Shown: positions 13,367 through 39,491 of the stretch, piece after piece
How positions within the stretch are numbered: the stretch's first letter is position 1
Layout of the letters: every line of letters starts with the position of its first letter
Assembly (NCBI GenBank): GCA_973895155.1
Contig: OZ316893.1
Location: 3,454,490 to 3,518,489 of the forward strand
Length of the DNA stretch: 64,000 nt
Source: Marsupella aquatica
Lineage: Eukaryota > Plantae > Marchantiophyta
Direction: 5' to 3'
Notes under the pieces: generated by a model
What the model was told of the DNA's origin: nothing
Databases searched by the model: none
Seen by the model: only the letters and a program-made list of their open reading frames with translations
Translations under genes and position numbers: made by a program

Positions 13367-14796
13367 AGTGAGTCTCAAAGCTTGAAGTTAGCAAGATAAG
13401 TTATTGTCATAACTCAAGCATGACAAGTTACTCAAGCACTACAAGTTACTCTCATAAGTCAAGTATTATAATTCCAGTAAAAATTATGGGAGCCTTTCTT
13501 TGGCTATAATAAGAAAAGTACACCGGTTCAACACTTAACCCATAACTTTTTTGCAATATTAAGTGCAGATACGAAAATCCAGGACTCTAGAGCTCTGGAA
13601 GTCACCATTGAAGGCTGTGGGATCTACTTTTGACGTGGTGATCGTTGTTGCATTTGAGACTACGACTAATCAAGAATGAAGGAAAAAAAAATATATGCTG
13701 TGAGACATATGGGGCGGGTCAATTCTACCTCCCCCCAGTTTAAAAATTCTATAACTGGGTTATGGGATATACCATAGATCCATAACTTTCACTAATGACC
13801 CAGCTTTGAGAGGCCTATTGAATATAGAGGCTGACCAATGTAGGGTGTACTTTCAATATCAGGTCTATGCAGGGACGGAGCACTAGGTGCTAGATTCAGA
13901 GGCTTCTTGAAATTTTAAAGCAAACAACTCCATCAAAGCTGTTGCAACTGATTTTTTGTGAGGCTGCTATATATGGTGGGTCCGGACACTCTTTGGCTAT
14001 CTTGTCTCATTCAAATTGCTTACAATGTATTTTTATGTTCTCGGGGGTTTCACTTCCACAAAAGTAACATATCACGTGCGACGAAGTATAGGGTCATTTT
14101 ATTGGTTTGAAGGGAAGACTTAAGAATTTTTTGAGAAGAACAATAGGGTCTTTTAAATCCAAGTTTGAGACTTATAAGAACATTAGGGTCCTTATAACCA
14201 AAATTTTAGAATATTCCAAGAATATTCTAACTTTATAGGGATTGAAAAATAATAATTTTTTCTTACATTTTAGGGGGTCCGAGGCCTAAAAACGTCGCAG
14301 GTGATGGGGAGGCATCCATATAGTGAGACCCCCGAGTTTATGTTAATCTGACCTAATCCATGCCTTAGCCATGTACTATTTAGAATTTGATCATTTTTGG
14401 GCAGCCCTTTAAATTTTTTCATTCAGTTAGTTTTGACTAAGTTCCTTTCTATTAGGTTCCCTATATTTTAGGGCATTCGCAGACATATATATGCGGGAGG
14501 GTCATTTCCACAGAAGTGGCACATCATGTGCGACGAAATATATACCCATTTAAAGTAGTACTTCTAAAGTTTAGTGGAAGAACACATATGGCGTGTTTTA
14601 TTGACTGATCGACTTTAAAGAACACATAGACCTGTTTAACTGTATAAAATATTTTCTTTAAAGTTTTGGGGGTGTTTTTTAGTAAAAAATGATAAAATTT
14701 AAGTTATGGGGGTCAAACTCTAGACCATCGCACACGATGTATGGCCCTCCATAATAGACATCTATTAGGATGAACATCCTATATAGCTAATGCCTT

Positions 14797-15128
14797 TGTT
14801 GAACTAAGACGTCATTCGCAACGACCATACAACCATGACTCATTCCATGCACACGTAGTCGACACAATCTCTACGTGGTTCACCTCTTCTCCAAGGCTAC
14901 GTCCACACGAACACTCAAGCTTTACTTCAAGAGTAAACCAACACACATGCTCTCCCTCTTCCTCAAGTTGCTCCGTTACAATCAGTAAGCACCACACACC
15001 AGCGGCTTACACTAGCCCTAGTATATACAAGGTCACACACGACTAATCTAACCTCAGCTAAGATCCTAACTGTGGTTAGCCTAAGTGCCGTAACCTATGA
15101 GTCACAAGACTAAGAGCAATCCTTAACA
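14797..15128 (-). repeat. Copia 3' LTR
   Basis: Differs from 35666-35997 at about 5 positions by eye; PPT (rc AAGGGGGAG) at 15131-15139. Confidence 0.95.
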
Positions 15129-15332
15129 AACTCCCCCTTGACTCTAGTCTTGGGGACTGCAATTTCTGCTATCCATATGAGATACTCAGCGGGAAATTCT
15201 AGACAATCACCTAAAACCATAGGTGTCCCCCTAAAAACCATTTAAGGTTAACTAAGGGTTAACTAGAATTAAGCCGTAGCCATAACAGGATTGAGTAACC
15301 CATATACAGAAATTACATATTGTTAAGTTACT

Positions 15333-16799
15333 CTACTTGTGCTGCAAATGCAAAACTTGCAAAGTAGCACGGTGTCTTGAGTAACTCTCCAAAGGAATCA
15401 CTTTGGTAAAAGCATCAGCCGGGTTGAGCTTTCCATCAATCTTGACTAGCTCAAACATTTTATCAGACACTGCTTGCCTAATAAAATGGTACCTGATGTC
15501 AATGTGTTTCACCCTACTATCCATAACTTGGTTAATAGCTAGGTGAAGCGCACTTGGCTGTCACAATGAAGAGTCATTTTTCCATGCTCCAATCCCATCT
15601 CAATGACCAACTTATCCAACCAAATTGCTTCCTTTGCTGCTTCTGCTGCTGCAACATATTCTGCTTCTGTAGTAGACTGAGATACACACTTCTGCAAGGT
15701 AGATCTCCAACTTATGAATCCTCTTCCAAGAGTAAACACATACCCAGTCGTTGACCTCCTTGTTTCCAGACAGCCTCCGTAGTCAGAATCTACATAGCCA
15801 ACCAAAGATTTGGTTTTGTTTGATCTACTATCAAACAACAGACCATAGTCTATTGTGCCCTTAAGATACTTGAGAATCCATTTCACAGCCTCCCAATGTA
15901 CCTTCCCTGGATTTGACATGAATCTACTCACTTTGCCCATTGCTAGGGCTAGATCAGGCCTAGTACATGTCATCAAATACATTAGACTGCCCACTGCCTT
16001 CTCATATGGAACCTTAGTCATCAAACCTCTCTCCACTGGATCCGTGGGGCAGAAAGCCGATGATAACTTGAAATGTGGAGCCAAAGGAATACTTACTGGC
16101 TTACAATTTTCCATGTTGAATCTTGCAAGTACCTTTTCAGCATACTTGCCTTGATTCAACCACAACTGTCTAGTTTCAAAGTTCCTCGTAATCTCCATAC
16201 CTAAGATCCTCTTGGCTTTCCCAAGATCCTTCATTCGGAATTTAGAACTCAATTTTTCTTTGAGTTTGTCAACCTCAATTTGATCCTTAGCCACAATCAA
16301 CATGTCATCCACATAGAGCACCAGAATGAGCAAACCAAACACACCATTCTTGACTGATTTCGTATACACACAAGGGTCATACACCATCCTAGTGAATCCT
16401 TGTGCAAGCATGAAATCATCAAACCGCTTGTTCCACTGCCGAGGAGCTTGCTTCAATCCATACAAGGACTTAAGTAACCTGCAAACTAAACTCTCTTGGC
16501 CCTTCAGTTCTTCACAAAGCCCAGTGGTTGCCTCATGAAAATTTGTTCCTCCAAGGTGCCATAGAGAAAAGCAGTAACAACATCCATTTGATCTAACACC
16601 AGATCAAAAAACACAACAAGTTGACACAAAATTCGTATCATGGAATACTTGGCAACTGGAGAGAAGACCTCATTGTAATCCACTCCCTTCTCTTGAGTGA
16701 ATCCCTTGGCAACAAGCCTTGCCTTGTATATCTTGTCTCCTCCATCTGAAGAGCTGTCCTTCAGCTTGTAAATCCACTTGCTATCCACCACTTGTTGAT
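15333..16799 (-). pseudogene. Copia reverse transcriptase / RNase H
   Basis: YKARLVAKGFTQ, QMDVVTAFLYG, YGLKQAPRQW, YVDDML, GYVDSDYGG, EAEYVAA, KHIDIRYHFIR; small frameshifts. Confidence 0.95.
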
Positions 16800-17547
16800 G
16801 GCCTTTTGCAAGTTAGAGGGGGTCCAAAGGGTGCAAGTTTTGGCACCTTTTAGTAGTGGACTAAGTATCAATAAGTAAATGTTTATGGGTCTCCAAGTAA
16901 TAAACTCTGGTTACCAACCCTCATAACTAAGGTTAAAGGATAATCAAAATAATGCAAGCACCGTTGATGTTTACTCATCCATCGGTCAGGTGTGAGCAGC
17001 GTTTCCAAACTTGTACCTTGAGTTAGAAAATACATTGCGACCGTTAGATGAGATCTAACGGTGATCATGTATGAGGTACGCCATTGCAAAAGTGCGGGAG
17101 AATCGAATGCCCAACTTTGAACAGAGTGCGATGCGACGATGTGAAGGAGAATGCGATGTGAAAGGAAATGCTCAAGGCGCGATGTGAAGGAAATGCCCCG
17201 AGGCCTGAATGTGTGAAGGAAATGAGACGACGAGAAGATTTTGTCGAAGCCGTTTGTTTGAGGCTACAAACTGCAAGGATGCGGAAGTTCAAGGCTGTGA
17301 GGCTGCGAGGCTGCAAGGCTGCAAAAGTCTGAGGCTGTGGGGTTGCGGACATTCAAGGCTGCGGGGTTGCAGACGTTCAAGGCTGCGGACGTTTGAGGTT
17401 GCGGAAGCTTGAGGCTTGCTTTCGGCTCATTCTTTCATTGCTTGCTCAAATGTTCTCAAGAGTTTGAGGCTGAATGTTTTGCTTCAACATTGGTAGAAGA
17501 GGTCGCTCATTGAGGTTGGGGGCATTGGAGGTGGGAAGGTGGGAGCG

Positions 17548-20500
17548 ATGGCATCCAAAGGGCAGGAACTGATAGAGGTAGTAGTGGCAGAAGAGGCAGG
17601 GGAGACTCAAGTTAAGGTGAGCAGCAATAGCGGCAAGGCAGACCGGTCACGGAAGTGCTCTATGAGCAGCAGTAGTTCTGTGAAGACAGAGAGCGAGAAA
17701 TCTGCAAAGCTTGTACCACTCCAGAAAGGAAAGGCCGTTGCTGATCCTTCCAATGACGAGTGGATTCCTTGGCGGGAGGAAGACTTCAGGAAACCTAAAG
17801 ATTATTGGACCAAAGTATGTTGTCTTCCTGACCACGGGCTGAAACCTGGTGCAATCCTAGATTCTCTCGTCTCCAAGGCTATGCTACAGAAGTGTTTTGG
17901 AGCGTTATCCCATAACGGCGCTCACCTGAGTACGCACAGGCATTCCGCAGGAGGAAATAGTGCATTTGACGCAGGTTTTGGATGGGCACGAAAGCAGCCC
18001 TTTGAATGGGATGTTGGGCAAGACTTTAATAAAGGGTCTGTATGCTCATTTTGTTCTTCGGAAACCTGTGAATTGGGCTTCTTTTGCTGATATCAAGCAT
18101 AAGAATCAGATTCACAAAGCCTTCACGGACAAGAAACCAAAACCATTTGGTCCACCGATTGTAAGGCCAGATATTGTTTACAAGCAGCCGAGTCAATGTA
18201 GTCTGGAACGCGTTGAAGCTACAGCTGGGCAGGACGACGAGAAGATTGCTCCTGCAATGACAACAGAGGAGCCCCCATCTGCTCCAGCAACCACATCTAT
18301 CGCATCCCTGAGAAGTACTGTTTTCTCATCTGTATGTACCGCCAAGGTCCCTCCAGAAACTACTGAGAAGTATGAACTTCAGCAAGGAACTTTTGTTTGT
18401 GTCATGTTGAATTGCTTGGATAGTGAAATCGAATCCCTGAAAGTTCATCGTCTGAAAGTTTTGGAAAGTATCAAAGAGGTCACCCGGGTGGTTGAGAAGC
18501 ATGCACAGTTGGTGGAAGAAAATCAGAAGAATATCGAGCAGGTTGAAGCTCATATTCCTACTCAGCAGGCCAAATTAGATGCGAGGGAAAGAGAGCTGCA
18601 AATTGTTTTGGACAAGAAGGAGGCCGTGGCAATGGAGCTTGACGACTGCAAAGCAGACATGGATGAACAGGTAGATAATAGTGTTGCATTATGAATTTCT
18701 TTCACAACTGTTACAATCTGTTCTTGCTGTAATTATAGCAGATACTAACAACTTGATTTCGGGGATGTGTAGGACCATGATGCTCAGGAGCAGGTGCAGG
18801 AATTAGAGCAACAGGACAATGATCTCGCAGAAGAACTGGTCAAACTTGAGTCTGAGGTACCATTCCTTACATTCTGGTAGTAGGTATTTTTGTGGATGTA
18901 AATCACAGTTGAGGAGATATCCTGATTTTTGCCGGAATGATATCGTATTTAGGAGTCTTTACTCCCACATTGCCATCAAGGTTAGCTGTCAATATTACCA
19001 TGATTTGTTCTAAACTATGACGATTAATTTTGGCACAGGTTCAAATGCTGCAAAAGGGCATCGCTGATGCTAACTCAGAAGTTAAGGCCTTGGGAGTTTC
19101 AGCAAGTTGGGCAAGTACAGAGAAGGAGAAAGGAGTGCAAAGACTCAAGGATCTGACAACTAGGCAACAGGGCTATGATCAGAGTTTGGAATGTTGCGAG
19201 GCTGAGAAGAAATCACTTACAGACCATTTTCAGGGGGAGTTTCATTCCTTGAAACCTCAATTCATTCCAACGGCTCTGCAATTACGACAACATCTGTTCA
19301 AGATGTCTCCATGTGCCGTGTGTTTCCTGGGGTTTCACTGCCAAAATTTTATTCCCACCTCATGTGGGCATTGTTACCATCCAGCGTGTCTTGTGCCTTT
19401 AGTATCAAAATCTGACTGTGAAACTCCACGATGTGTAGCTTGTGATGAAATTTTTCACCCTCATTGGTTGCAAAGTTGGGGCTTGGCGCATTCATCTCCA
19501 GAATTGATTGCATTGGAGGTAACGTTGGGGCCCTGGGCCCCCAGCCTTTGTAAACTAAAGAGGTATACGTGCGTACACCCCCCTCCTTAGTACCCCTTAT
19601 TATTTTTGGAAGCCTATAAAAATTTCTCTTGTTATTCTTAAAAACTTAATTTTGGAGAATAAATCTGCCCCTTTGAGATATTATAATTTCACATTTTACA
19701 CCATTTATGAAAGCCTTGAAAAGTTATAAATTCATCATTTGCACACGGTTCTAAAACTGACGGGAGTGTTTTGGAAGGGTTTTGGGTACATACATTTTTG
19801 TGTTCGTGACCCTTTAACCCCAAACTTCAACTTTGGGGCATTTTTGAACCACACGGCAGGGTAGTCAGGGTTCAAAAGCTCCAAAGTCCTAAACTACTCT
19901 GAATCATAGATATTGCAAGCATAATTATATGTCATATACACATGTTCCAATAAAGGGTGGCCACAAGGACCAATCCTATTGTGACGCGTGTCACATCCAT
20001 ATTACATCACCTCTTGAAGCATATTAACTTGGGCAACATTTATATAAGCCTATATTAGTTAGAAAGGGTTCTTTGAATAAAACCATCCCTTGATATTTCT
20101 AAGCCAATTATAAAAATTAATCTCAAATCAGATTTTTTGCACCCTTCATCCGTTCGCACGTCCAACCCATTATTAATAATGCTGGGGGCCCAGGGCGTTG
20201 GGGTTGGGAGGTCAGACAAAGTCTTTTGAGAAACAATTGCGGGACTTGTACAGAGAGGGGGGTGAAAAGTTGAAGGCCAGGCAAGATAAGGAGAGAGACC
20301 GGCAGAAGACTCTGACTGTAAAATATTCCAAGGTATTTTAGCTAGTGTGGTATGGTTTTACTTTGTATGTCTTGGCTTGCTAGTGTGCCACATGTATAGC
20401 ATCAAGGTATGTCTTGGTCGTCAACACCATTGCTATTGTTGTGACCGGGTGGTTTTCTGTGTGGTGTTTGTAGGAGGAGGGGGATAGTCAAGTTGCATTT

Positions 20501-20983
20501 GAAGACATCAAGCGAAAGGCACAGTTGATTCAATTGTCTTCCACAGCTAAATATGTAATAGATCTAGATTCTCTGGATCTACCATGTGGAGAGGGAAGTC
20601 CATTGAAGAAACGACCTGGGCGAAGGAAACAGTCTATTGGAAGTTCAGGGCAGTCAAATCCTGTAGTGAAGGTGGAGCCCGGGAGTGTGGTGGCATCGGT
20701 GGATAGCCAATCAAAGGAGGGAACTCCCGAGAAGAAAGCCCCAGGCAGAAAGAGGAAGAGTCAAGATCTGATTACTGGGGACTTTGCCCAAAGGAAAGTT
20801 GTCACTCGTCATGACTCCCTTTCATTAGCAGAGAGAGGAACTGTGGACGATAGCCCTGCTAGTATGAACGACAGGCTAGTAGTGATGAATTTGTCTGATG
20901 TGGTATCACCACCTATATGTAGTGCAAAAGGGAAAGGAAGGCCAAACGCGAAAGAGTCTAAGAAGAAACTCGATTTAACTTGA
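17548..20983 (+). pseudogene. Transposon-borne spliced gene: N-terminal unknown domain, coiled coil, RING-H2 finger, basic C-terminal tail (disrupted)
   Basis: Phase-compatible GT-AG introns 18671-18772, 18857-19038 and 20333-20473; C-x2-C-x13-C-x-H-x2-H-x2-C-x14-C-x2-C; KKRPGRRK/RKRK NLS-like motifs; one frameshift near 17930; MITE insertion. Confidence 0.8.
19531..20195. mobile_element. 665-bp MITE inside the RING gene
   Basis: Perfect 15-bp TIR CCCTGGGCCCCCAGC; duplicated CGTTGGGG flanks; removal restores the frame EVTLGLGGQTKSFEKQL. Confidence 0.92.
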
Positions 20984-21479
20984 TACGAGTTTGAGACTCT
21001 AGTAATGTGGTTTCTGCCGTAGTTGGCAAAGATGCCTAAATACAGGCTGTGTTATATATTTTACAAGTTTTGGATTACGAGATATGGAAGCCAGCAAGTA
21101 GGTTTACAGACTGCCTTCACGCAGGTGTATTTCTCAGATCATTTATTTGGTGTTGCATGTAAGTGTTTAGTTTTCCAGGTTTCAGATTTCAGGTTTCAGT
21201 TCTCCAGGTTGCGGTATAGTGATACGGGTTCTCATTGAGAATCCATGAAATTTTGCTGACTGTTTGTTTGTCTGTGCAGGAAGCCACTAAGTTGCAAGAT
21301 AACGTCTACCAGGAGTTTTGGCTAAGGGATACTTTCTCTACTTGGTAGTTTGGTTTATAGTTTTGAGTACACACTGGTCTTTGAATGTGGGTAATGTTGC
21401 TACTTGCTATATAGACTATTTTTCATGTTGACTACTTTGTTACCAAGACTGCTTTGTACAATAAAACTGGTTTAGACTT

Positions 21480-22800
21480 GTATTAATTACTTGGTCATTT
21501 ACTTGTTACTGGTAGTACGTACTTAATATTACGCAATATTGGTATTCTCTATTTTTTGATAATACTTAATAGTACCTACTTAGTACTGATAGTGCTTAAT
21601 ACTACTTAGACTACTTGTCACTGAAGAGCACTAGTACTACTTGGGCCAGACATTAATTTGTTAATGATAGTACTTTACAGTACTTGTTACTGACGAGAGC
21701 GCTGGTATTACTTGGGCCAGACCTCCAGTTACTTGTTACTGATAGTACTTAGCAGTACTTGTTACTGAAGATAGTGTTGGTATTACTTGGGCCAGACCTT
21801 TACCTGTTACTGATAGTACTTAATAATAGTATTAGTAAGATAGCGCAGCTGGTATTACTTGGGCCAGACCTTTACTTGTTACTGATAGTACTTAATTAAT
21901 AGTACTATTAGTAAAGATAGCGCTGGTATTACTTGGGCCAGACCTTTACTTGTTACTGATAGTACTTAATTAATAGTACTATTAGTAAAGATAGCGCTGG
22001 TATTACTTGGGCCAGACCTTTACTTGTTACTGGTAGTACTTAATTAATAGTACTATTAGTAAGGATAGCACTGGTATTACTTGGGCCAGACCTTTACTTG
22101 TTACTGATAGTACTTAATAGTACTATTAGTAAACATAACGCTGGTATTACTTGGGCTCGACCTTTACTTGTTAGTGATAGTACTTAATAGTACTATTAGT
22201 AAAGACAACGCTGGTATTACTTGGGCTAGATCTAAGTTACTTGTTGCTGCTAGTACTTAACTGACAGTACTTGTTACTGAAGAGAGCACTAGTATTACTT
22301 GGGCCAGACCTTTACTTGTTAAGTCTGATCGTACTTGATATTACTTCTTACTGAAGAGAGCAATGTTATTAATTGGGCCAGACATTTACTTGTTACTGAT
22401 AGTACTTCTTACTGAAAATTAAGAGCACTGGAGACTATTACTTGGGCCAGACCTTTACTGGTTATTGTAGTACTTAGTAGTACTTGTTAGTGAATAGAGC
22501 ATTGGTTCTTTGTATGTTTTGGTTCAGACCTTTACTTACCTTGTTACTGGTACAATTACTTAATAGTAGTTGTTAGTGAATCAAGCACTAGTATTACTTG
22601 ACCGTCCACACCTTGAATTGTTACTGATAGTACTAGATGTCATAATTGTTAGGTACATATTGATACTTCTACTTGTATTACTTGTTATTGAATTGGTTAC
22701 TTTACCTTCAGGATGGAATGATTTTTCAGGAGTTTGCTTTGTTTGGTTATATAATTGATACTTGTTACTTATATTACTTGCTACTGTACTGAAATAGAGG
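21480..22800. repeat. ~70-bp minisatellite, TACTT/AGTACT-rich
   Basis: More than 10 copies of CTGGTATTACTTGGGCCAGACCTTTACTTGTTACTGATAGTACTTAA. Confidence 0.9.
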
Positions 22801-24779
22801 ATTGGTTGCGGCAGCTTAGAAATACTTAATACTGCTAACTTAGAGTAAGTTACTTTCCCTGTTTTGTACTGAATAGGTTGTATTTGTTATTTAGAATGAC
22901 TTTTTACTTATTTGGCCCAGTTTTGGTACTTATTTTAATTGCAACTGAATTATGGTACTGGTCTGGTAGAATATGGGCTCTTTAGTACTTTAGATATTGT
23001 CTCGTCCTGGACTAATATAGTCTCGTCCTGGTGGTTTTTCCTTTCCAGGTACATGGACAGAAAGCTGAACAGTAAGTTCGTGGCACCTACTATTTGAACT
23101 TCTCTCTGTTTTGGACTATACCATTTGCCATAGAAACGTTTATTTTACAGCCCATTGGACTACGCTTTTAAGTCGACATTGACTTCCGCTTGGTTTTGGC
23201 TGCGAGTATAATTGTTGTTCTCCCTGATTGTCATCTTGCAGTCAAGCTCAATGTCAATCGAAGGGTGGTTAGTGTTCTGTGGGCTTTTGACTAGTTGAAG
23301 CTTGTGTTGGACAACACTGTGGAGATCAATGGTAATGAGAAAAATGAGATCAGCAAGGTGGTGAGTTTTCTCTAGCTCTGCATCTTCTCATGTTCCCTCT
23401 CCCGTATCGTGTCGGACAACAGATTTTCTGTATACTCGCACTTCATTCCTGTGCACTCCAGTTCTTTCTTGTGTTGCTTTCTTCTACTGGTCAAGTTCAC
23501 TAGGCTAGGACCTTGCTTTCCCCTGGGCGTTAAAGTTTTTGTGTGCTCCTGTATTTGGTAACATTGCTTCACTCTTTGTTTCTGAGGTTGATCAGATTGT
23601 CGTAATCATGTTTTACAGGTCATGCCAGGGAGTAGTGCAGTGATGATAGAGGCCCTGGAAAATATGAGATAAGATTTGGCATGTAAACTAGGATTCCCCA
23701 CCCATGTAAGGCGAAGCAGACCTCCTACCTTGTGAGCAGGGGTTACATCTTAGTATGGCGGATTCATTCCAGAATTAGACAACTAGGGTGACATTCCAGT
23801 TGCTCCCAGGCAGCAGGCACCAAGCTCCAGAGATAGTAAGATGTCAAGAGAAGCTATACCATGTAAAACTTGTTGCTGTAAATTTTGTTGGAAATCAAGA
23901 AAGGAAAACCTGTTATAATAGTATACTTGTGATTGAGCTCGTTCTTGAACCATTGGGCTCAAATTTGAGCTGAAAATACATTAGCTGTGGTCATCCCTAA
24001 AATGTACACTGGTTGACCATCACCTATCAGAGTCAGATAGTACTAGCTAGGCAAAGAATCGGTATTCTCCATCGATCTGCAGCTTCGTTTCAAAGGATGA
24101 AGAAACAAATATTAGACATTAGATCTATAGAGAACTTCAGTACTTTAGTTCATCCCATTCAAGCCAGATCAAAGCTTCGACTAATTTGGAAGGCTCCCCA
24201 CTATGGGTCTTGTACAATAGGTGCTCCTTGGTAACTCGGTCTGCTTCTTTGCGCCATTGAATAGACGAGCACGTAGTGACGGGTAACTCCAGCGCGGTAG
24301 TACTCCATTCTCAAATTTGTGAGCATTTTAGTAGCTTTGGTCGAGTCGAGACTCTACGGCCATACACTCGTAACCGGGAGAAGCAGACTTCCGTGTGTAA
24401 GCCTAGCATTTTAATGTTCAATGTTAAAACCAAACCGTTGTGGACAGCCAGCAACTTTAAAATTAAGACTCCAGCCCAGAGGTTGGTTCATTTCCGAAAG
24501 TTGTAATTTTACCTGGGTGTCACATCATTTAATTCATACGTAAAGGGTTTGAAACGTGAGAACTTTTGACACAAACAAGATCTTCGAAGCCAATGAGGTC
24601 CTACAGCAACACTATGTAATGTGGGAATTAAGGCTGCAAGCACTTATGTAACAGAGTCGCATATGAATTATAGGAGAATCCACCATAACTTTATCAATAC
24701 TCTTCAATGCCATGAAGTGGAAGGGGACAAAATTTGTAAGCCTACATAAAAGCCAACTGAGCGCCTGGAACTTCCATAG

Positions 24780-25507
24780 CCTTTGACCGGGTTGCCTACA
24801 GGCCTCTCAATCTTAGTACCGACCTCCTCGCTGTAGTCCCCATGTACCTCCATAAGTTTTGTCAGATCAAACTTGGGAGCCTTCAAAATCTTCACCTTGC
24901 GAAACTTGGGAGCTTCAAAATCTTCACCTTGCGCACAATTGTGTTCTGTACAGGGTAGATACCTACGGTAGCCTTCTCAATTTCCTTTCCGATAACCTCA
25001 GGAATGAACTTGGAAACCAGTTCCTTGAGGTCACATTTGTGGGCCTTAGTCATTATCTCTCTCATCTTTCTGCAAATAGTTCTGATCTGACTGGACTAAG
25101 CGTACAAAGTCCTCTTTATCTGGTTCGGCCTCTTCTTCGTGAAGCTAGTACTATCAATATACTAATAGTACTATCAAGCTAGTCTTGACATCAATATAGG
25201 CAACAATAAGAGACTACCACTTGCGGACAAGGGACCGAAGCTTGTCTGTAGTGAAATCCATACCCCAAAAGTTGGTAAGAACATTGCGCCCTTGCACATC
25301 CTCAGCCCTTGGCTTGATCTTCCTGAAAGCCTGGTCTTCGTCTTGCTGAAGATCAGCGAGTGAGACCTCAAACACACCTTTCAGGCCATCAGCAGCGATG
25401 TTTGTTCCTTGTGTTCTGGTCACAAGAGTCTTGCCGAGGCTCCGCTGCGTGAAGGTCGAGGGCGCCTTGATATCATATGAATCCTCCTTCTTGTCCAAGC
25501 AATCCAT
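24780..25507 (-). pseudogene. RPS3A: Intronless 40S ribosomal protein S3a (eS1) pseudogene inside the transposon
   Basis: [98 protein letters not shown]; stops, frameshifts, N-terminus missing. Confidence 0.92.
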
Positions 25508-25789
25508 AGATCCAAATGTCCATTACATCTATACTCAGACCTAAGCTTCCAACCAGACCCACGTACCTCCTGAAGCTGCACAATCAACAAATACGCAAGA
25601 TCAATAAGTAAAGTTGTGAGAGTCCAGGAGAAATCAGATAATTGTCATGCATTGTGCTTTCAACCCCATATGTAACCCACAACCAACCTCACATCATTTG
25701 AATTCAACTGTTACGTTCAGTTGGATTCTAAGTTCACCCATAAGTACAGCAGTTACCTTGGCAACAAATAAACTACAACACTTGTAGGT

Positions 25790-26300
25790 TAGTGTTAAGT
25801 ACTACCAATGCCTAAAGAAGTAAAGTACTTCAAACTACCTTAGCTGTAGTTAAGTACTTGAAGTAAGCGTTTGTCAAGAAAGATGGTCCAAGTACTTCAA
25901 GTACTGTTTGAGTACTTGAAGTAGTCGTCCAGTCTTAAACTACTTAAAGTAGAACTAAGTATTTCAAGTAAGACTAGAGAACTTGAAGTACTTGAAGAAG
26001 TACTTATTGTACTTATTGTACTTGAAGTAACTTGAAGTACTCGAAGTAACTCGAAGTAACTTGAAGTACTCGAAGTAACTCGAAGTACTCGAAGTAACTC
26101 GAAGTAACTTGAAGTACTCGAAGTAACTCGAAGTACTCGAAGTAACTCGAAGTAACTAGAAGTACTTCAAGTAACTTTAAGTACTTAAAGTAACTTAGTT
26201 GATGTACTAACTTAAAAGTAAATTGAGAGTATGTACTTCAAGTAATGTTAAGTACATGAAGTAACGATAAGTACTTTAAGTACAGTTACAAGTAAGATAT
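25790..26300. repeat. 9-10-bp GAAGTA(A)CT(C/T) array
   Basis: Alternating GAAGTACTC/GAAGTAACTC units; core at 25980-26200. Confidence 0.9.
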
Positions 26301-26631
26301 GTATTGCAAAGCAACCCTCAAGCACAAGTTATAGAAAGAAAAGTACTACGAGTAAAGTAAAAGTAATGAAAAAGTGTAATGATCATACAAGGATAACATG
26401 ATTGTCTCAGTAGTATTTAGGTAGACAAGAATTATGTTGGTATAGGTCCTTACTAGCTTGAGACTTTGTGGCGCTCTGTCCATAATTTGACAGACTTCAG
26501 TAATCACCTGAAGACACACTGCCACACAAAAAACATACCACTACCTTGGTCATCGTTGTTCTGTGTAATTGCAATGTGAACAACTTTCAAAGATTTGAAA
26601 GCAAGAATCAAAGTGGATCGAGGTAGTTGGT

Positions 26632-29600
26632 CTACCTTTCCAAGGATCCCATGATTGCAGCGAGAGTATCTTTAGGCAAAGAGAAGGCATTGTCCCCTCC
26701 TGATTTCCCAGCAGGCTGAAGTAAGAAGCCAACATGGATGACATCCTTTGCATGCACCCAACTTGTGGGCGACTTCCGTGTGTATACATAACGGGTAACC
26801 ATTTTTCCTACTTGTTGGTACCATCTGCCCTGTAATACTCTGTCACCAACCTTGAAAGCTACCCCATATGCATCCACAAAACTCTCTTGGCAATCATGTG
26901 CTTCCACCTCACATTGCAGGATATAGAAATCAGCACCAAACAGGTCGTCAGCTGAAGCCTCAACAGCAAAAAATGTACCAACCTCTATGGTGTCAGCTAA
27001 ATCTCCATCTTCCAACTCCCCGGCTCCTAGTCCAACACCCATGCTATGCACAATTGCTGCAACATCTATGGTTGCTTTGGGTGAATGGTTTCAAGCTCCC
27101 ACTTTCCAGCATGCTCCACATTTGGGCAAGCTAAAGTCTCAGCCCCATCGACACAGGCAGGACAGAAGCAACACATCTCTCTCACCTTTAACAGAGTAGG
27201 AACATCTTTACTGAAGCCGCGAAAGCAATGAAGGGATCTGGTTCCTGGAATTGGCTCACAATCCCAAGCTTTTCTCCTATTCACATCTCCCTCCTTGATT
27301 TCCCAATGATGGCGTCGAATCGTCTGAACTTTTCCAGGTCCTGTCTCCTTCCCTAATGCAAATCTGGATCTTAGGAATGTCACAGCATCATGAGCATTCT
27401 GTAGTTTATGACCTCTTGTTGAACTTAAGAGTTGTTCTTTGGCTAGAGCCCTCTTCTGTGTACCACCTTCGCCATCCTAACATACAAATCAGGTATCAGA
27501 TGACATTCGTGGATTCTGATGTCAGCAAGTAACCTTCATCTAGTCAAGAAGCCAGTTCACATCAGAGAAGACTGAATCATCCACAGTGCTGTCACCTACT
27601 AGTCTATTCAAAATCTTGACTCACTCACAGTCACAAAACCACAATTGGAAATCAAGAAGCTGGAAGAAGGTTGGACGGGAGGATGAAATACTCACAACAA
27701 CATTTTTGCCATGACCGCTTCCATGGAAATTCCACTGCATTTCTACTCCGTAAGTATTGTAGTACCTACTTACAAAATAGAATGGCCCTCTGCTCTTAAA
27801 CTGTGCCGCACACCCATCGCTCCACACCCAATGATTGCCAATTGACAAATTTTGATCTTGTACCCACTTGATGTGTTTATCCAAACAATGTTGGACAAAT
27901 AAACTGTCATGCTGGTTATCATCGCTTATGTAGAAGTGATAGTCTCCAATGATGTGGCGATCATCCGGATCTGAGGGGTCAGGTCTGCATTCTCCATCTA
28001 TGTATTCATGATCTTCCTTGTGCCTAAACGTAGCGTGAACCAAGATGCTAATCTGCTTGTTATCCCAATGCATACTTTGCACTTCATCTTGAACCAAAAA
28101 AGTATAGTTCTCACTGAAATCTATAGAAGAAAGCATGGTCCCCTTGGGAAATATTGCTTGAGACCTCTTGTACTGCTCTGCTTGCCATCGAGCACGGAAG
28201 TTGTGTATAACAAACGCAGGCATCTTCAGCTTTACCTTATCCAGAAATTCTGCAAATGGAGTTTCCATGTAGATCATTCTTAACCTCTTTCCTGTTGCCT
28301 CGTCTTCCTCACCAGCCTTCTTCTTAGTAGACTTCTGTTGCAAGTTAACATACTGAAAAGTTTCCCAGACAATAGGCAAGGAGTCGCCTGATTGTAACTC
28401 AGCGTTGCATGTGAGTAAATGTTCCACACCACAATCTTGGCATGCACCCATGATGCATTCCTTCTTGTGCCACGATTTACCTTCTGGTTTAGGACACAAT
28501 ATCTCATCACACCAATCTCTCACCGACTTCACTGTGCATTTCCCAGCTAAACAACCTGCTCCTGGTCCAGTAGTTGATGAGGAGTGACAAATTGCACAAT
28601 CACAACAGCATGTCGTCGTAGGATGTTTGTGAAGTCAAAATTTATTCAAAGCCTCCTTCAACAAATTCATCTCCACGTGTTGTTTACAACAGCAAACATT
28701 CCTGTCTTTGAGGACCCGAATGAAATAGGGCTTCAAGTACTGGAAGGTCCTTAATCCAACAGGCACTTCCTCTCCTTTGTTTTTGCACCATTTTGCGAAG
28801 ATCAAGTAAAAATCGACCTGGCCATCACAAACACGACTACTTTAATTAGTGTAATTACTAGTAAGAAGAGAGGACATCTCTGGCCGAGTGGACAACATGT
28901 TCAGTACCTGAAAATACAATGAGGGCGTAACTATGAGAATTGGAAACCTATAGAGATTGAGTGACACAACGTACCTCAGTTTCCTCTAGCCAATGGACTT
29001 GATGTACCTCATACACCTTCGGACTCAATCTGAGCCTTGCTTGGTCAGATTGGTTTGGTGAAACTCTAGTATTTTCCTCCCAATAAAGCTTCACAGATTC
29101 CCTGATTTCTTGAGAGATTTTGTCTGACCTCGTCTTTCGGACACCCATTGGAAATTTGACTGATTTATCAGCATCAAGTCGTGCTCTGGTGATTGCAGCT
29201 CGATATAAATTTGCCTTTTTGATACCTAGAGCTTTGGCAAGACTAGCTCTTCTCCTGTCTTTCACGATCTTTGAACCTAGCATATTCAGCAATGAACACA
29301 AGATCATAATTAAGTCTACATACAGCAACACATTGAAGTCTAAATACAGCAATGTTCATAACAAATACCATCCACTGAAGCAATAATCTGACTTCAGCAA
29401 CAACATTAAGTAAGAAACATACCAGTCAGCCCAATCAGCACTGATTGCTTGGCTGCAAGATGATCCTTCCTATGTGCCCCTTTTATTACTTGTAGGGCTG
29501 ACTTCAAGTCTTCTTGAAAAACTCGCTTTCATTGAGGCGTCCATCTTAGGGCAACCAGTTTTGGAAGGGTGTAGGTCTTTCAAACCAGGATTATGCCAGA

Positions 29601-30300
29601 ACTTTTGAAGCGCTAACTTCTTGCTTGCTAAGTTGTGAAACTTGGTGCTCTCATGAAATACTTTGAACAAATTGCTTGCTATTGCTTTCACCCTTCTTGC
29701 TCCTCTGTTTGGTTGATCCAAACCTGAGTCCTCACATTCGGGCGTTGCTACGCTCTGTTGCTGTTGCAAGACTTTTTGCTTCCAGTAATATCTTCTAGCC
29801 CTTTCAACATTCCGTGCTCGAATTTGTTCTGAATTGACACTAGTTGGCCGCACATCTACAACTGCAGGTCTATGCCCTTCAATGTTGCTCTCAATCAGAC
29901 GCCATCTCTCTGTGGCAGAAGCTATACAACTATCAATTACTGCTTTAGAGACCTCAGCTGCATCTACAAGGGCCTTGGCCTCCTCCCTCGCTTTCTTTAG
30001 AATGCTTTCGGCTTCTTTTATAGCGTCGTTCTTTCTTTCCTCAATTTCTGCTAAGGCTTCCTTCTTGCTTTCTGCAATTTCATCGAGCAGGCGAGACTTC
30101 TCAACTAAGCGTCTCCTCTTCAAGAAATTCCTATGTTCTCTTTTCTGATTGATAACATCCATCCCGACAGCAAGTGAATGGGAGGTCAAACAAGATCTCA
30201 AAGATCCCGAATAGCCCGAAGCCAAAGCCCTCCCACTTCGCACTAGCTTGCTTCCAGGTACGTAGCTTGTTTGTAGAGGTACCACTGCAGCAGCCTCCAT
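26632..30300 (-). pseudogene. Sola2-like DDD transposase, spliced and disrupted
   Basis: FQYLKPYFI..CCCKQH, DFSENY..QDEVQSMHW, YISDD..HD, SDGCAAQFKS, WNFHGSGHGKNVV|DGEGG; introns 29277-29422, 28818-28974 and 27477-27695; stop at 28635-28637; frameshifts near 29500 and 27075. The true start may lie further upstream. Confidence 0.85.
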
Positions 30301-30878
30301 GCCATCTTGATCAGGTCTCCAGCATCAGGACAACAAACAGGGTGGTCCACACCACCTGCCCGCGGGATTTCTGGTCTTGCCGTCACAAAAATACAACTAC
30401 ACAGACAGGCTGATTCGACCGGCAAAGCAAAGAGCACGACAAGTGGGAAAAGGCCTGGTGTGGTTTGGAGCTCCGAATCCTCCTCTGCAAAGTGATCGAT
30501 CGTTGGCGCCCTCACTCAAGCTTCGGAACAGAACAACATCGCATTTGGGCCGACATTCCTTGTCGACACCCCCAACATCGACCTGACCAACCTCGTCCGA
30601 GTCTTCTTGCCGTTGACAGAGATTCCTCAATCGTGAGCAATCACTGTCACATTTCTCTGCTTCTCGAGAAATTGGCCTCATACTCACGCTCGTACCTTGT
30701 CGATCGATCTTTGTCCAGACCTTCCGCTCTCTCTACGGTCTGGAATGAGCAGTCTGTCGCAATGCAGCGATTTTGCCTTGTCATCCCGCAATGTAGCGAT
30801 TACTGCCGATGAGATTGACAGGGACGTGCACATATGTTTGCTCTATAGAACTGATGTCCCGATTGTAAGTGAGGCAGT

Positions 30879-30982
30879 GAACTCGAAGGTAGACACTCGT
30901 GTGCTCTTGATCAGCAAAGAATATTTTGAGGAATGAACTCGAAGGTAGACACTCGTGTGCTCTTGATCAGCAAAGAATATTT
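30879..30982. repeat. ~50-bp direct duplication upstream of the transposase
   Basis: GAACTCGAAGGTAGACACTCGTGTGCTCTTGATCAGCAAAGAATATTT twice. Confidence 0.85.
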
Positions 30983-31292
30983 CGAGGAATGATGCAAGAC
31001 TCTCCCGCTTTCAAACAACGGGACATTTTCCAAACAGAAGCCTTACTATTTCAAACGAGGCATAAGTTGGCGTCCCCACTACTTTGTCTAATTATTACAC
31101 TACCTGCTAAAGGTCACCTACTTAGTCTCATAATCACAAGTTAATCTCCTCCCTCCATTCCTTTGATTCTTGAGATTTAATCCTAGCCTTTGAGGGTTCC
31201 TTCTTGAGTAAAGTAGTCCTCCCCGGCTCTATAAGTAATTGTGAGGTTGTTAGGTACTTTTTATACCCCTTGTAACTTGCAATAGGCCTGAT

Positions 31293-33960
31293 CACTTGGC
31301 AGCTGCACCAGCTCCCATGTTCTATTGTCACTTAAAGATTGCAACTCCCTCTGCATCGCTGCATTCCATTCATCTTTCTCGTCTGAAATGCACGCCTCAT
31401 GATAAGAAGAAGGTTCTCCTTCTTCCAAGATCAGTGCTCTGTCATCATCATCAGGTGCAATGTCAACATCATCTAACCTTGATGAATCTGTCCATTGTCC
31501 ATACCTTGTAGGAGCTCGAGTAGTACGTCTCGATTTTCTAGCTGATGATTCTGGTTGATCTTGTTCTGTTGGTTGAATTTGAGGTATTCCATCAACAGCC
31601 TGCTCCTCTTGTTCCATTACCGGAACCAGCTCCATTCTTGGAGCACCTCCTTCATTTATGTCATGAAAACTCTCATGACCAATCTCCCCCACAATATGGT
31701 CCAGGATAGGAGATTTACCTTTGTCAGTACGGGAAGCCTGAGCATTCTCCCCCTCCTTTGATGATCTGGATTCATTAAAGGATACATCTCTACTGACAAG
31801 CAACGTACAAGCTTCTGGATCCCAAAGCCTGTAACCTTTCACACCTGGTTGATAACCAAGAAAAAGACACTTCTTGGAAGTAGAATCTAGTTTAGATCGA
31901 TTCTGCTTAGGTGTGAGAGCATATGCATCACTTCCAAAGACTCTCAAAACCTGATAGTCTGCGTGCCGTCCATACCTCATTTCAAACGGCGTCTTGAAAT
32001 TGATTGCACTTGAAGGAGAAAGATTTACCAAATAAGTTGCCGTATTTATAGCTTCAGCCCATAATTCATGCGGTAAACCTGATTGGCTCAACATACTCCT
32101 CGATCGCTCCAATAGTGTTCGGTTTAGCCGCTCACAAACACCATTCTGTTGAGGAGTATAAACTGTCGTGAGATGACGAGTAATCCCTTGTTCTGCACAA
32201 TATAGTTCAAACTCACTTGAACTGTACTCCCCACTGTTATTTGATCGTAGATATCTCACCTTGGATCCAGTCTGATTCTCAATTTGGGCTTTCCACTTCT
32301 TAAAAGTGCCAAAAACTTCAGACTTGGCGTGTAGAAATGTGATCCACACATACCGTGAGTAATCATCAATGAACGTGACATAGTACAATTTTCCAGAAAG
32401 TGAGGGAGTTGGGGCTGGACCCCACACATCACTATGTACATACTCAAGTATAGCTTTGGTATTGTGAGTTCCAACACCAAAGGTTCTCCTGTGCTGCTTC
32501 CCAAGCACACAGTGTTCACAAAAACCTAGCTTAGTAGATTCCAAATTAGAAAGAAGTCATTTCCTGCGAAGTACCGCCAAACCTTTTTCACTCATGTGTC
32601 CCAATCTGCAGTGCCACAACTGAGTCATCTCGCATTGAGATCTAGTTACATTGGCTTCTTCACAAATCACGTTGCCCTCCAATAGGTATAGATTCCTGTG
32701 CCGCTTACCCTTCATGACAACCTTGCCTCCGGTTGACACGTGAAGAATACCATCAGCAGAACTCCACCGACATCCATTTGCTTCCAGCATTCCAAGAGAA
32801 ATCAAGTTCTTTTTCATGTCAGGTATGTGTCTGACATTACTCACTGTTCGCACAGCTCCATCAAACATCCGAATTTTCACGGATCCAATTCCAATAATTT
32901 GACAAGGATGATCATTCCCCATCAACACGGAACCGGTTGATACTGAGTAAGAACTAAAAAACTCTTTCATACAACAAATATGATAGGTACAGGCACAGTC
33001 TAAAATCCATTCATCACCGTTGTTACTTGATGAAATGCAAAGGGCAACATCTGGACTTCACAAGATTTCATCATCAAGCAAGTCAATCATATCAACATCA
33101 GTGGCTACGTTCGCTGATGGTTGATGAGTCTGTTTGACTCGACAGTCTCATTTCATGTGGCCAGGCTTGTTACATTTCCAACATATAATTGGTTTCCTTT
33201 CTAGAGATTTCTCTCTAGACCTGGATCTAGACTTAGACCGAGCCTTCTCCTTGCCTCTATTCCGTGAGGGGTACGTTTGTGAAAAGGATCTGTTTTCACC
33301 AGTCATCCGCTGTTGAGTCCTCCCGCGATTCACATTCAATGCACTGCCAGATGAAGATGGTGTCTGGGCATGACCCAGTTTCTTCTGTGCATCATCTGAC
33401 AACAAAGAGCTTACCACCTCATCATATGAAATGGTTTTGAGATCTCTATACAAGAGAACCTGCTTCAAACCTTGATACGATGGGGGTAAGGAACTAAGAA
33501 GAAGCAATGCCTTATCTTCATCTTCCACTCCCTTGCCAAGATTTGACAAATCTATAGCTAGGCTGTCGAATTCATCCAAGTGATCTCAAAGCTTGCCTCC
33601 TTCTTTTAGCCTCAAGCTCATCAAGAGAGACTTCTGGTACAACCGATCTGAGGCATCCTCTCGGTAGTACTTCTCTCTGAGGGCCTTGAATAAGGATACG
33701 CAATCCTCGTAGTCGTCCAACTTCTTAATGATATGCGGCTTCAGATACAGCATAACCGCATTCACAACAATCACTTGCTCTTGCCTCCATTTCCTCAACG
33801 GGGTCTCCTCCTCACTGCTAGACTCCTCCCGAGTCGATAGTAGATGATCTAGGCCCATAGCACGAAGAATTCCCTTAACCTGCTTCTCCCATAGCAAATA
33901 ATCTGTGCGCCCATCATATTTTTCCACCTCAAACTTGACACCTCCAAACTTGGATGCCAT
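31293..33960 (-). pseudogene. Copia gag, protease, GAG-pre-integrase and integrase
   Basis: FEVEKYDG, LLLLSSLPPSY, CWKCNKPGH, WILDCACTYH, LWHCRLGH, VHSDVWGP, TPQQNGVCERLNRTL; several stops and frameshifts. Confidence 0.95.
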
Positions 33961-34674
33961 CGTTGTCCTCCCAACGTTCTCCACGTGCTATTGCTGTGCT
34001 GCTCCCTATATGCTTTTTCCTTCCTTCCTTCGCGTTGACTCAAATCCAAATCACGAAAAAATGTCATTTTTCGCAACTTTCCAAAAAACTTGAAACTTGT
34101 CACCGCCACTTAGCCCACCAACCTAGCAAGCCAACGCTGAAATCCGAAATCGAAACCGAGTTCTGACGAAAAACTTTTTCACATTTTGGTCGGGGTGGGT
34201 AAAACTCAAAAATTCTCCCCCGTTTTGACCACCTCGGGGAATAAGAAAATATCCAAGTACCACCCGTCGTCGGAAATGGAAATTGAGTGGTGCACCGCGT
34301 TGCTAGCTTCAGTGGCTACATTCTCGCCAAAAAAGATCCAAAAAAGTTACCGTTCGGACCTTAGAATCTTCGGCTAAAGGCCGAAAAACAGCTCTCTATT
34401 TTTTTTGGAATATTCATTGGACTGTGCAACAGGTCTCACAGGGGGCCGTTCCCCCTGTCCAAGCAGTTAATTTGGTGGGTCACCGGGCCCGGGATGCCGC
34501 TTAACCAATGAGGAGCCTGGAAAGGATTAAAAAACCAGGCCTAAGGGGGTTTAAGCCCCTTAACACAAAAATACTGTCTTAAAAAAGGCGCATTCTGCCT
34601 ATACGCGTGACGGGCCAGGCAGTGCACAGGGGGCCGGGGAGTCAAAAACCGAGTCAAAATGGGCAGGGATGGAG

Positions 34675-34810
34675 CTACGACGGCCAGGACGTCCGGGACG
34701 GCCGCGACGGTCGGGATGTCTGGGACGTCCGTGCCGGCTGCGATGTCCGGGATGGCCGCGACGTCCGCGCCGGCCGTGACGTTCGGGACGGCCGCGACGT
34801 CCGGGACGGG
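34675..34810. repeat. GC-rich 9/18-bp tandem repeat in the copia 5' UTR
   Basis: GACGTCCGGGACGGCCGC-type units. Confidence 0.85.
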
Positions 34811-35651
34811 AGTATTAGCGAGGAGGAGGAGGGGGTCGCCAACGGGGTATTGACAGGGGTGCAAGGGTCGGGAGGGTGTGTATACACACCACCAAAAAGG
34901 CCCTATTCTAAGGCAAAATGTGCACAAAAAAATAAATTTGTTGGGTTACTTACACTGCCGTTATCACTTTACACCAGATAAAGACTAGTTGTCGACGGGA
35001 AATGTTACCGAATTGCACCGGCACCGTTTGCAACTCTAGCAAAGTAAAAAATTCCCGTCACGACTCTTTCACTCCGCGTCAAGTATCAATCTTGGACTCA
35101 AAACAACCACTGCACCGCGATCTCTCCGTTGAGCCGTTGCACTTCCCGTTTCTTCCTTTGAGTCGAACGCAACGACAAGAAACCCCGCTTCAGTCAAAAG
35201 AAGACTCCATAGCCAGTCAGAAACTCAGAACGGCTCTTTTGCTTGGTACATCGCACTCACTACACCCTCGATAGCAAACCAGCTACCGAAATGATCAGCT
35301 TTGCCCGATCTACGATTTGAGCTAAAGGTTGTGACGCCTCGCGCACCACAAAGCTCACACCATCGGGAAAACGATCTCAGTTTCCTCCCAAAAGAACCGT
35401 CGAAGAAAACCGTCGAACACGAATCATAAAAAATCCAGAATGACATAAACGTGAATTCCTTCGCACCACAAACTCCGTTCAGAGACTTCTTTGCACCGTC
35501 GGAAAGCCCTTGCCCCGATCTATCCATTGAGCCCAACACCTCCAAGTTCCATGCGATAGAACTCCGTGAAATCCACCAACTCTAACCGCTGGAAAACCGT
35601 CACCAACACGTCACAAAATTTTTGATCACCTCAACGTCACCTCCCAGGCTT

Positions 35652-35663
35652 GCTCTGATACCA
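35652..35663 (-). other. Primer binding site (tRNA-iMet)
   Basis: rc TGGTATCAGAGC, 2 nt from the 5' LTR. Confidence 0.95.
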
Positions 35664-35665
35664 AT

Positions 35666-35997
35666 TGTTGAACTACGACGTCATTCGCAATGACCATACA
35701 ACCATGACTCATTCCATGCACACGTAGTCGACACAATCTCTACGTGGTTCACCTCTTCTCCAAGGCTACGTCCACACGAACACTCAAGCTTTACTTCAAG
35801 AGTAAACAAACACACATGCTCTCCCTCTTCCTCAAGTTGCTCCGTTACAATCAGTAAGCACCACACACCAGCGGCTTACACTAGCCCTGGTATATACAAG
35901 GTCACACACGACTAATCTAACCTCAGCTAAGATCCTAACTGTGGTGAGCCTAAGTGCCGTAACCTATGAGTCACAAGACTAAGAGCAATCCTTAACA
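35666..35997 (-). repeat. Copia 5' LTR
   Basis: TG..CA, 332 bp, adjacent to the PBS. Confidence 0.95.
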
Positions 35998-36666: not shown

Positions 36667-38140
36667 CTTCGGGAGCTGTAGCAACACGCTCAAATCAACA
36701 GACAGATATTCACTCACACCGACTCCCCAACGGACACATCGATGAGCTTCCCTATTGTGCCTGCACCTGCTCAATGGTTTCCTAGGCTAGTGGTGGCACC
36801 ATTTCACGGACTGATGCAGTGGGTTTCTCTATATAGCCTCCCCTTTCTTTTCACATGCCTCAGTTGGGCCTTTTGTCGCTTCTTGATGCGCTTTTGCTTT
36901 TATCGGGTTGTGGCCTGTCATGTCTATGTTGAGAGTGTTGGCATGGGGCAAGCACCTAGCCCCACCACACGTACACTTCTTGCCCCTCCTCCCCCCCTCG
37001 TGATCGCCTTTGTGTTTGCTCTTCTTTGCTAGATCTCTTTCATCTTTGTGATGATCCCATGCCCGATGCTCTACCAGTCCCCCAGTCTACGGCCCACCCC
37101 ATCGTCGCCCTTGCTCCTCTCCCCACCCCATTCCCCCTCCACCCCTCAGGCCTCTTCATCCACATCTGTTCCATCCCCAACTCCCATCCAGTCTTTCCCT
37201 GCTCCCTCCCCCGACGAGCGTCCATTGCATACTTGTCCTGACTGTGGATGGGTTGGCATCTCCTCCCTCATCCTCGCGTGTGGGGCCGGTGCCAATGTCA
37301 TTAGCAAGCATAATCCCAGCCTCACCCCCTCTTGACCCTGTTAGCTCTGCCCCTCCCTCCTTGGAGGCTCCCGAGCATGGAGTTGGGTCCACACTCTAGA
37401 CCCCCTTATAGCCTACCATTCATGGTACATTAGACCTTGCCTTTATAACCACATCCTACTAGCACTGCGCCCATTAGTTTGGTCCTCCTTGTTACAACTC
37501 ATACAACTTATCTTGACGTATCCTATAGAGGTCTCCTATTGGTCTTTACTCATGCTTTTTCCATAGTGGACTCTTACCCTTCCTAGTCATAGTGGTCGTG
37601 TGGGTCATCGTGAGACTGCCTCTCATATCCATCATTTTTTGCGAGGAGATTGGGAGCAGCTTTAGAGAGTACTCTCTTCAAGCCCGTTCATTTACCACCC
37701 GTGCTTTGTCTGACCCAATTTTCCACTCTCATCCTCCAAAGTATAGACACCTTTGTTGCTCTTATCATTTGGCCTAGGCTGGTGAATATTGTTGGGCTGT
37801 CCAAACCCTTTTCTCCTACCACACTAGTCCCCCTGGCAAGGTCACCTTGACAACCCTTTAGGATGTCCATCCACAACCCTAGGATCAGCTCCCTTTGTTT
37901 GTGGAGGATTTTGAGCCTGAGGATGACCTTCTATTTAGTACTCACCACTTCACCTTTGCCTTCCTTTATGCCCAATGTTGCGCGGCTGGTCACCCCTTTG
38001 GCTATGTCTTTGAGTATTTTTGTGATTTATTCTCCCTTGAGGATACTCAGTTTGGTTTTTCAGTTTTCTTATCCTTTTGCCAGTGTATCGCAGCCAGCCG
38101 TTTGCCTCCTCCTGTTTCTTGGCTTTCAAGTGTTTTGCGT
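36667..38140 (+). mobile_element. CRE copy 2, 5' fragment (degenerate)
   Basis: Collinear with 4555-6060 (HTCPDCGWVG, FVEDFEPEDDL, IAASRLPPPVS). Confidence 0.9.
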
Positions 38141-39490: not shown

Positions 39491-39491
39491 T

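Follow-up and report, generated by a model that had tools for sequence, protein, structure and literature searches.

The window analyzed here is a 64,000 nucleotide (nt) stretch of the Marsupella aquatica genome (contig OZ316893.1). It contains a copia long terminal repeat (LTR) retrotransposon that is interrupted by a 14.5 kb Sola2-type DNA transposon. The latter carries two convergent genes, a transposase gene on the minus strand and, facing it on the plus strand, a gene termed here ORF2 (open reading frame 2). Each gene has four predicted exons with GT-AG introns, which amount to approximately 1,050 codons in the transposase and approximately 780 codons in ORF2; all splice sites of both genes are predictions. 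Non-coding tandem arrays are situated between the two genes. The features are shown in Table 1. Comparison with related loci indicates that ORF2 very probably belongs to the element and is passed on together with the transposase.

Table 1. Features of the Sola2-type element and its insertion site, in window positions
Feature	Coordinates	Strand	Remarks
Host copia LTR retrotransposon, insertion target	14796..35997	-	LTRs 14796-15128 and 35665-35997
Left target site duplication (TSD), TGAT	16796..16799		Empty-site joint with 4 shared letters
Sola2-type element	16800..31288		14.5 kb; pair of terminal inverted repeats (TIRs) plus TSD
TIR, ORF2 side (3′ end relative to transposase)	16800..16823	+	21/24 match to opposite end
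Short tandem repeats upstream of ORF2	17137..17419		Periods 8-40
ORF2 exon 1 (predicted)	17548..18670	+	N-terminal "NWA" domain (~17770-18190), linker, start of coiled coil; frameshift near 17930
ORF2 exon 2 (predicted)	18773..18856	+	Coiled coil, 28 codons
ORF2 exon 3 (predicted)	19039..20332	+	End of coiled coil, C3H2C3 RING (~19312-19443), conserved helix; split by MITE
Miniature inverted-repeat transposable element (MITE)	19531..20195		665 nt; perfect 15-bp TIRs starting CCC, 8-bp TSD; outside the basic element
ORF2 exon 4 (predicted)	20474..20983	+	Low-complexity basic tail, runs resembling a nuclear localization signal (NLS)
74-bp tandem array, non-coding, between genes	21627..22635		10.7 copies (Tandem Repeats Finder), decayed copies to 22635
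Decayed intron-free RPS3a (eS1) copy, passenger	24790..25522	-	Pfam PF01015, E 1.2e-26
AAGTA-rich 9/10-bp tandem array past transposase stop	25890..26290
Transposase exon 4 (predicted)	26632..27476	-	Third catalytic Asp (DGEGG) and C-terminal domain; frameshift near 27070
Transposase exon 3 (predicted)	27696..28817	-	Cys-rich region, DFSENY, SDG, HGK; premature stop 28637-28635
Transposase exon 2 (predicted)	28975..29276	-
Transposase exon 1 (predicted)	29423..30299	-	Start codon 30299 or 30162; frameshift near 29515
56-bp tandem duplication upstream of transposase	30870..30992
TIR, transposase side (5′ end)	31265..31288	-	21/24 match to opposite end
Right TSD, TGAT	31289..31292

An initial annotation of this DNA had claimed exact ends for the element and a copia frame that is restored on its removal, and both are borne out. 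The first 24 nt match the reverse complement of the last 24 nt at 21 positions, and TGAT flanks both ends. A blind search for TIRs with 4-bp TSDs over positions 14000–34000 returned these ends as the sole pair, and the copia pol frame reads through once the element and one TGAT are removed. The empty site is also found in public sequence data. Contigs of three of the four runs compared (X1, X3 and X4; the four are from two studies, with organisms coded A and B) join position 16795 to position 31289 and skip 14,493 nt, and four letters at the joint can be assigned to either side. Across 333 nt, the two LTRs of the copia element are 98.5% alike, which suggests that the insertion of the Sola2-type element is a young one.

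The termini of the element read GGC. GGC ends had been ascribed to the plant lineage as a whole; this applies to the window element and is not general, as three related loci have likely 5′ ends that start GGT or TGT. Sola2 termini are described by the rule 5′-GRG, to which the GGC ends of the window element do not conform. The rule is not strict, however, since families filed as Sola2 in supplement S11 of PMC3627910 start GAA, GAG or GTT.

The transposase displays the motifs DFSENYTFLVQDEVQSMHW, ISDDNQHD, WSDGCAAQFK and HGK-NVV-DGEGG, the last of which spans a predicted GT-AG intron. All the motifs of the spliced DDD transposase that had been proposed (DFSENY, SDG and HGK..DGxGG) are thus present. 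They agree by eye with the published Sola2 alignment (PMC3627910, supplement S10), in which the group shows DF[SA]ENY..QDE[IV]QS.HW, ISDD..HD, [WF]SDG.A.Q[FY]K and HGK..D..GG, short imperfect TIRs and a 4-bp TSD; the 4-bp TSD is also named as a Sola2 feature in PMC3627910. The transposase shows no significant Pfam match, and Sola transposases without a Pfam match have likewise been reported (PMC5751038). Judged from the DDD motifs, the 4-bp TSD and the short TIRs, the element is of the Sola2 type. The window element differs from the described members of the group in that it is from a plant clade and has a spliced transposase of approximately 1,050 codons, GGC ends, a length of 14.5 kb and a conserved facing gene. 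An identity as Zator was discarded, as Zator has a 3-bp TSD and the TSD is 4 bp here.

The best named relatives of the transposase are in Calypogeia fissa, Riccia sorocarpa, Klebsormidium and Taxus chinensis. In a quick tree of 38 rows, all of them search hits (25 hand-picked from the 80 loci described below, the window and 12 proteins), the window transposase clusters with four liverwort proteins (SH-like approximate likelihood ratio test [SH-aLRT] 100), which by itself makes a liverwort host likely. The Taxus chinensis proteins (P0214 and P0232), one of which is 836 amino acids (aa) long and has every core motif, extend the lineage to gymnosperms. A Klebsormidium transposase model (P0006) is fused to leucine-rich repeats, and a distant Sola2-type relative (P0040) has a Ulp1-type protease domain (PF02902) joined to it; both may be gene-model artefacts. 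Two loci (L002:296 and L032:2434) show by eye an intron acceptor at about the position of the second transposase intron of the window, before a stretch resembling FF.RF.

ORF2 encodes, in order, an N-terminal domain (N-domain) that ends in an "NWA" motif and matches no named domain, a long coiled coil (predicted local distance difference test score [pLDDT] above 90 in the predicted model), a C3H2C3 RING, a conserved helix and a basic tail. Here again the earlier description, of a convergent four-exon gene with coiled coil, RING-H2 and NLS-like motifs, is upheld: the parts are there and the C3H2C3 metal-ligand spacing is complete. A Foldseek search with a 635-residue ORF2 model gives coiled-coil matches only. 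A HMMER search of 1.84 billion representatives yields 95 relatives of the RING exon at E ≤ 0.001; a word-index search among longer proteins found none. Three of the 95 were dropped as generic or repetitive before profile building. The full C3H2C3 pattern is kept in 61 of the 95 hits, among which the exon 4 basic tail has no match. Ten relatives were looked up, and these are seven Riccia models, one Calypogeia model and two without a name; the Riccia and Calypogeia proteins have the same order of N-domain, coiled coil and RING. Among 20 RING-family hits looked up there is no single-copy named host gene, and eight pattern matches in viral contigs gave no confirmed family member. Several liverwort models annotated as "RING-type domain-containing protein" may be transposon genes.

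The association of ORF2 with the transposase was analyzed in metagenome contigs. In a scan, a related transposase was confirmed at 487 loci, of which the best 80 were used; these form 44 lineages at 85% DNA identity. Their contigs are AT-rich, intron-bearing and resemble land-plant DNA. Matches to the RING-family profile are found in 8 of the 44 lineages. All eight are downstream of the transposase, and seven (L002, L043, L051, L052, L057, L072 and L077) are on the opposite strand and face it, as in the window. There is no RING upstream of the transposase; the survey covered 171 kb on the upstream side and 176 kb on the downstream side (binomial p 0.004). Downstream sequence of 10 kb is available in 11 lineages, of which 6 are RING-positive. 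A hidden Markov model made from 50 hits, with the proteins closest to these loci excluded, recovers the same eight lineages, and the best E-value of a reversed-peptide control is about 1. The match in L057 is a weak one, with E-values of 0.01 against the profile and 1e-5 in tblastn. In L043, L057 and L077 the matching ORF2 pieces are in the same order, with weak scores for the N-domain. A ninth lineage (L032/L033) has a facing open reading frame with an N-domain (hhalign probability 94.7%), an acidic tract and a coiled coil.

The five loci of one RING subtype, as defined by blastp clusters, form a single clade in the quick transposase tree (SH-aLRT 99). At the DNA level, collinearity between L043 and L051 extends from a TIR-like 5′ boundary across the transposase to the RING gene; the boundary has a TTGCAAG core identical to that of the window TIRs, and the end of L027 is similar. 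L077 displays a TIR-like 16-mer just past ORF2 with three mismatches, for which no partner end was found and of which shuffled sequences give 1–4 per 255 kb. The RING gene is thus not confined to the window copy, as seven other lineages have the same layout. These lineages, together with the transposase motifs, support the proposal in the initial annotation of a plant lineage of Sola2-type elements with a conserved facing accessory gene. The transposases that share the fixed ORF2 position are only 30%–55% alike, and since the place of ORF2 has been kept across such differences, ORF2 likely serves the element. L057 also has a second, inverted transposase fragment (L057:2500-3414) 7 kb upstream of the main copy.

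The reading favored here, with a probability of roughly 0.45, is that ORF2 is a long-kept accessory gene whose product is predicted to bind the DNA of the element and to relieve silencing by means of a RING ligase. The N-domain would bind short motifs in the non-coding tandem arrays of the element (74-bp and 9/10-bp units), similar to VANC in VANDAL elements. The coiled coil may oligomerize or recruit a partner, and the RING would tag a silencing or chromatin factor near the element with ubiquitin. Expression of the transposase would then follow. These separate steps are tentative, at somewhat less than even odds.

Several observations weigh against this reading and concern the linkage, the RING and the N-domain in turn. 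With respect to linkage, the L030 RING is downstream but on the same strand as the transposase, and 5 of the 11 lineages with 10 kb downstream have no RING, including L027, which is sister to two positives. The facing open reading frame of L032/L033 has no RING either; the RING is therefore not a constant part of the accessory gene. No convincing TIR pair with a TSD was found in 15 long loci, which gave chance-level pairs only. In Riccia, seven ORF2 locus tags are not adjacent to its one transposase tag, and none of seven transposase accessions in Calypogeia neighbours its one named ORF2 accession, adjacency being judged by locus tag or accession among cluster representatives only.

The many Riccia ORF2 models that are not adjacent to a transposase model would fit another explanation, that ORF2 is a mobile module common to several plant repeats, or a family largely gone from the element, the association being an old hitch-hiking like that of Fanzor1. 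Six long ORF2 models from liverworts (P0050, P0052, P0055, P0056 and P0057, of which the named ones are Riccia, and P0063 from Calypogeia) continue into an RPA1-C-like OB fold and a zinc ribbon (TM score ~0.5, under the bar of the tool). The OB-fold domain was not found in the window element or in the 80 loci. RPA-like genes are typical of plant Helitrons, and the element takes up passengers, as shown by the RPS3a copy. A shared module is nevertheless unlikely. Position and orientation are fixed in 7 of the 8 positive lineages with none upstream, and the RING subtype tracks the transposase tree; moreover, decayed transposases are often unannotated and the comparison covers cluster representatives. 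The RPA1-C-like extension may be a third gene of the element, a mis-joined neighbour or a Helitron-type gene.

With respect to the RING, the window exon has no Pfam RING hit at E 0.1, and the best close homolog scores 20.7 bits against zf-RING_2, which is under the gathering cut-off of 27.3. The RING tail reads C-V-A-C-D, whereas active RING ligases usually have C-P-x-C-R. These features would fit an ORF2 that is a sequence-specific activator, in which a RING-like finger binds zinc or chromatin only and has no ligase activity; the RING-less form in L032/L033, with its long acidic tract, points in the same direction. Such a finger is quite improbable, however, as seven metal ligands are more than 90% conserved in the family alignment and the nearest solved relatives are RING E3 ligases, the best PDB match of the family profile being RNF4 (E 2e-4). 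ORF2 shares the metal-ligand spacing of the RING-H2 E3 ligases RNF4 and AMFR, which are its best PDB profile matches, and differs from them in the sub-cut-off Pfam scores, the non-canonical tail and the location beside transposases. Ligase activity is thus predicted as likely from the nearest solved relatives, against which the Pfam scores and the unusual tail have to be set.

With respect to the N-domain, there are two weak leads. Its Atlas neighbours include the plant transposon family PF20167, with a score of 0.78 where the bar is 0.9. In a comparison with 48,161 chains, VANC21 bound to DNA (9lnk_A) is at rank 3 (Z 2.7, root mean square deviation 4.2), and this alignment covers 119 of 146 residues, the longest of 15 rows. 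The Z of 2.7 is far under significance, and the N-domain model has a pLDDT of 73 and was made from 11 rows. Sequence profiles give no match for either lead: DUF1985, DUF287 and PF20167 give no hit at E up to 10 in two sets of 10 and 9 proteins. Foldseek finds nothing for the domain at E 0.001 in PDB or BFVD. Tandem repeats, the proposed target of the N-domain, are common in all 12 loci scanned, whether ORF2 is present or not. YAGTATTAY, the VANC21 motif, is present at two places in the window, which are both within the 74-bp array; this was treated as coincidence.

The same linkage data would also fit an ORF2 that acts on transposition, either through binding or ubiquitylation of the transposase or by bridging the distant ends, and so tunes activity rather than silencing. 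The long coiled coil (pLDDT above 90) is suited to a scaffold, and the transposase-Ulp1 fusion in P0040 ties the group to ubiquitin-like modification. This role is improbable on other grounds. The part that is kept in L032/L033 is the N-domain and not the RING, the two weak leads for the N-domain are to plant transposon regulators, and Sola2 elements of animals have been described as having the transposase alone.

Relief of silencing, the role preferred here for ORF2, has precedents in other superfamilies. The target that VANC21 binds is a short motif located within non-coding tandem repeats (PMC5735166, PMC10398659), and VANC proteins display DUF1985 and DUF287 domains (PMC5735166). VANDAL elements (PMC5735166, PMC10398659), like the window element, are large plant DNA transposons with an accessory gene and non-coding tandem repeats, and the weak VANC21 fold lead is a further resemblance. 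However, VANDAL elements are of another, Mutator-like superfamily, ORF2 has no DUF1985 or DUF287, and the available text of these papers does not describe a RING for VANC. TnpA of Spm/CACTA elements is likewise an accessory protein that activates its own family via clustered motifs (bioRxiv 10.64898/2026.08.24.746577). It differs in having transposase-derived helix-turn-helix domains, none of which was detected in ORF2, and in being reported as apparently confined to flowering plants; the text of that source mentions neither Sola nor RING. A fuller proposal is that a land-plant branch of Sola2 has evolved its own sequence-specific anti-silencing system, in which a DNA-binding domain remotely akin to VANC is joined to a coiled coil and a RING ligase; such a protein would read the tandem arrays of the element and clear silencing factors through ubiquitylation. 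This is possible but doubtful.

A second gene in a Sola2 element is not new in itself. The initial annotation had regarded Sola2 elements as carrying a single gene, but Sola2 elements with a Fanzor1 second gene have been published, the DFa and PPa families of Dictyostelium and Polysphondylium (PMC3627910). These also have a transposase and a second gene within the same TIRs and 4-bp TSDs. Their second gene is a TnpB-like nuclease, whereas ORF2 of the window has N-domain, coiled coil and RING and no such match. A description of Sola2 mainly from animals and protists, also given in that annotation, needs to be qualified, as Sola was reported in plants from the outset (PMC6839031) and has been counted in the fern genomes of Azolla, Salvinia and Ceratopteris (PMC6786969, PMC6890710). 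The literature search, whose scope excluded Repbase reports and most subscription journals, found no account of plant Sola2 structure or of a RING accessory gene in a DNA transposon. The novelty is thus a plant Sola2 branch with a conserved facing gene that has an unnamed N-domain, a coiled coil and mostly a RING.

VANC and TnpA, the transposon-encoded anti-silencing proteins of the cited papers, belong to Mutator and CACTA elements of flowering plants; the way in which VANC takes off silencing marks is described there as open. As the conserved accessory gene described here belongs to another superfamily and has liverwort relatives, a repeated origin of such systems and a ubiquitylation route can be tested with it, and liverwort genetics is practical. 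If the fuller proposal is true, anti-silencing would occur outside of Mutator and CACTA and outside of flowering plants, and a transposon would encode an E3 ligase aimed at host silencing.

Both genes of the window copy are broken, ORF2 by a frameshift in exon 1 and the MITE in exon 3, and the transposase by frameshifts in exons 1 and 4 and a premature stop in exon 3. As predicted from these lesions, the window copy can make neither protein and would depend on an intact sister copy. At least three of the lesions are missing from other copies. Contigs in all four runs differ by 2 nt at the ORF2 frameshift site, those in two runs (X3 and X4) differ by 1 nt at the transposase frameshift in exon 4, and MITE-free copies with a joint from 19522 to 20196 are found in three of the four (X1, X3 and X4). 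With the exact ends and sister copies that are without some lesions, an intact family may be recoverable. The coding-exon variants listed number 12, of which 4 are synonymous and 8 are not; these are too few, and too biased to mutations of the window copy, for dN/dS. The summed contig depth of the MITE is approximately 10 times that of the surrounding element, and it is probably a high-copy family.

The RPS3a passenger spans most of the coding sequence of 40S ribosomal protein S3a and has a 32-nt tandem duplication (24869-24933). The copy is probably derived from mRNA.

Other repeats are present in the window outside of the Sola2-type element. The host copia displays a GC-rich 9-bp tandem array upstream of gag (34672-34824). 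An approximately 1.5-kb element at 41824-43383 has arrays of a 24-bp unit inverted at both ends and is probably a non-autonomous DNA transposon with subterminal repeats. Diverged copies of one repeat, 83%–89% alike, are found at approximately 5300-8100, 37400-40100 and 43900-45300, and open reading frames at 6283-8136 resemble by eye a non-LTR reverse transcriptase.

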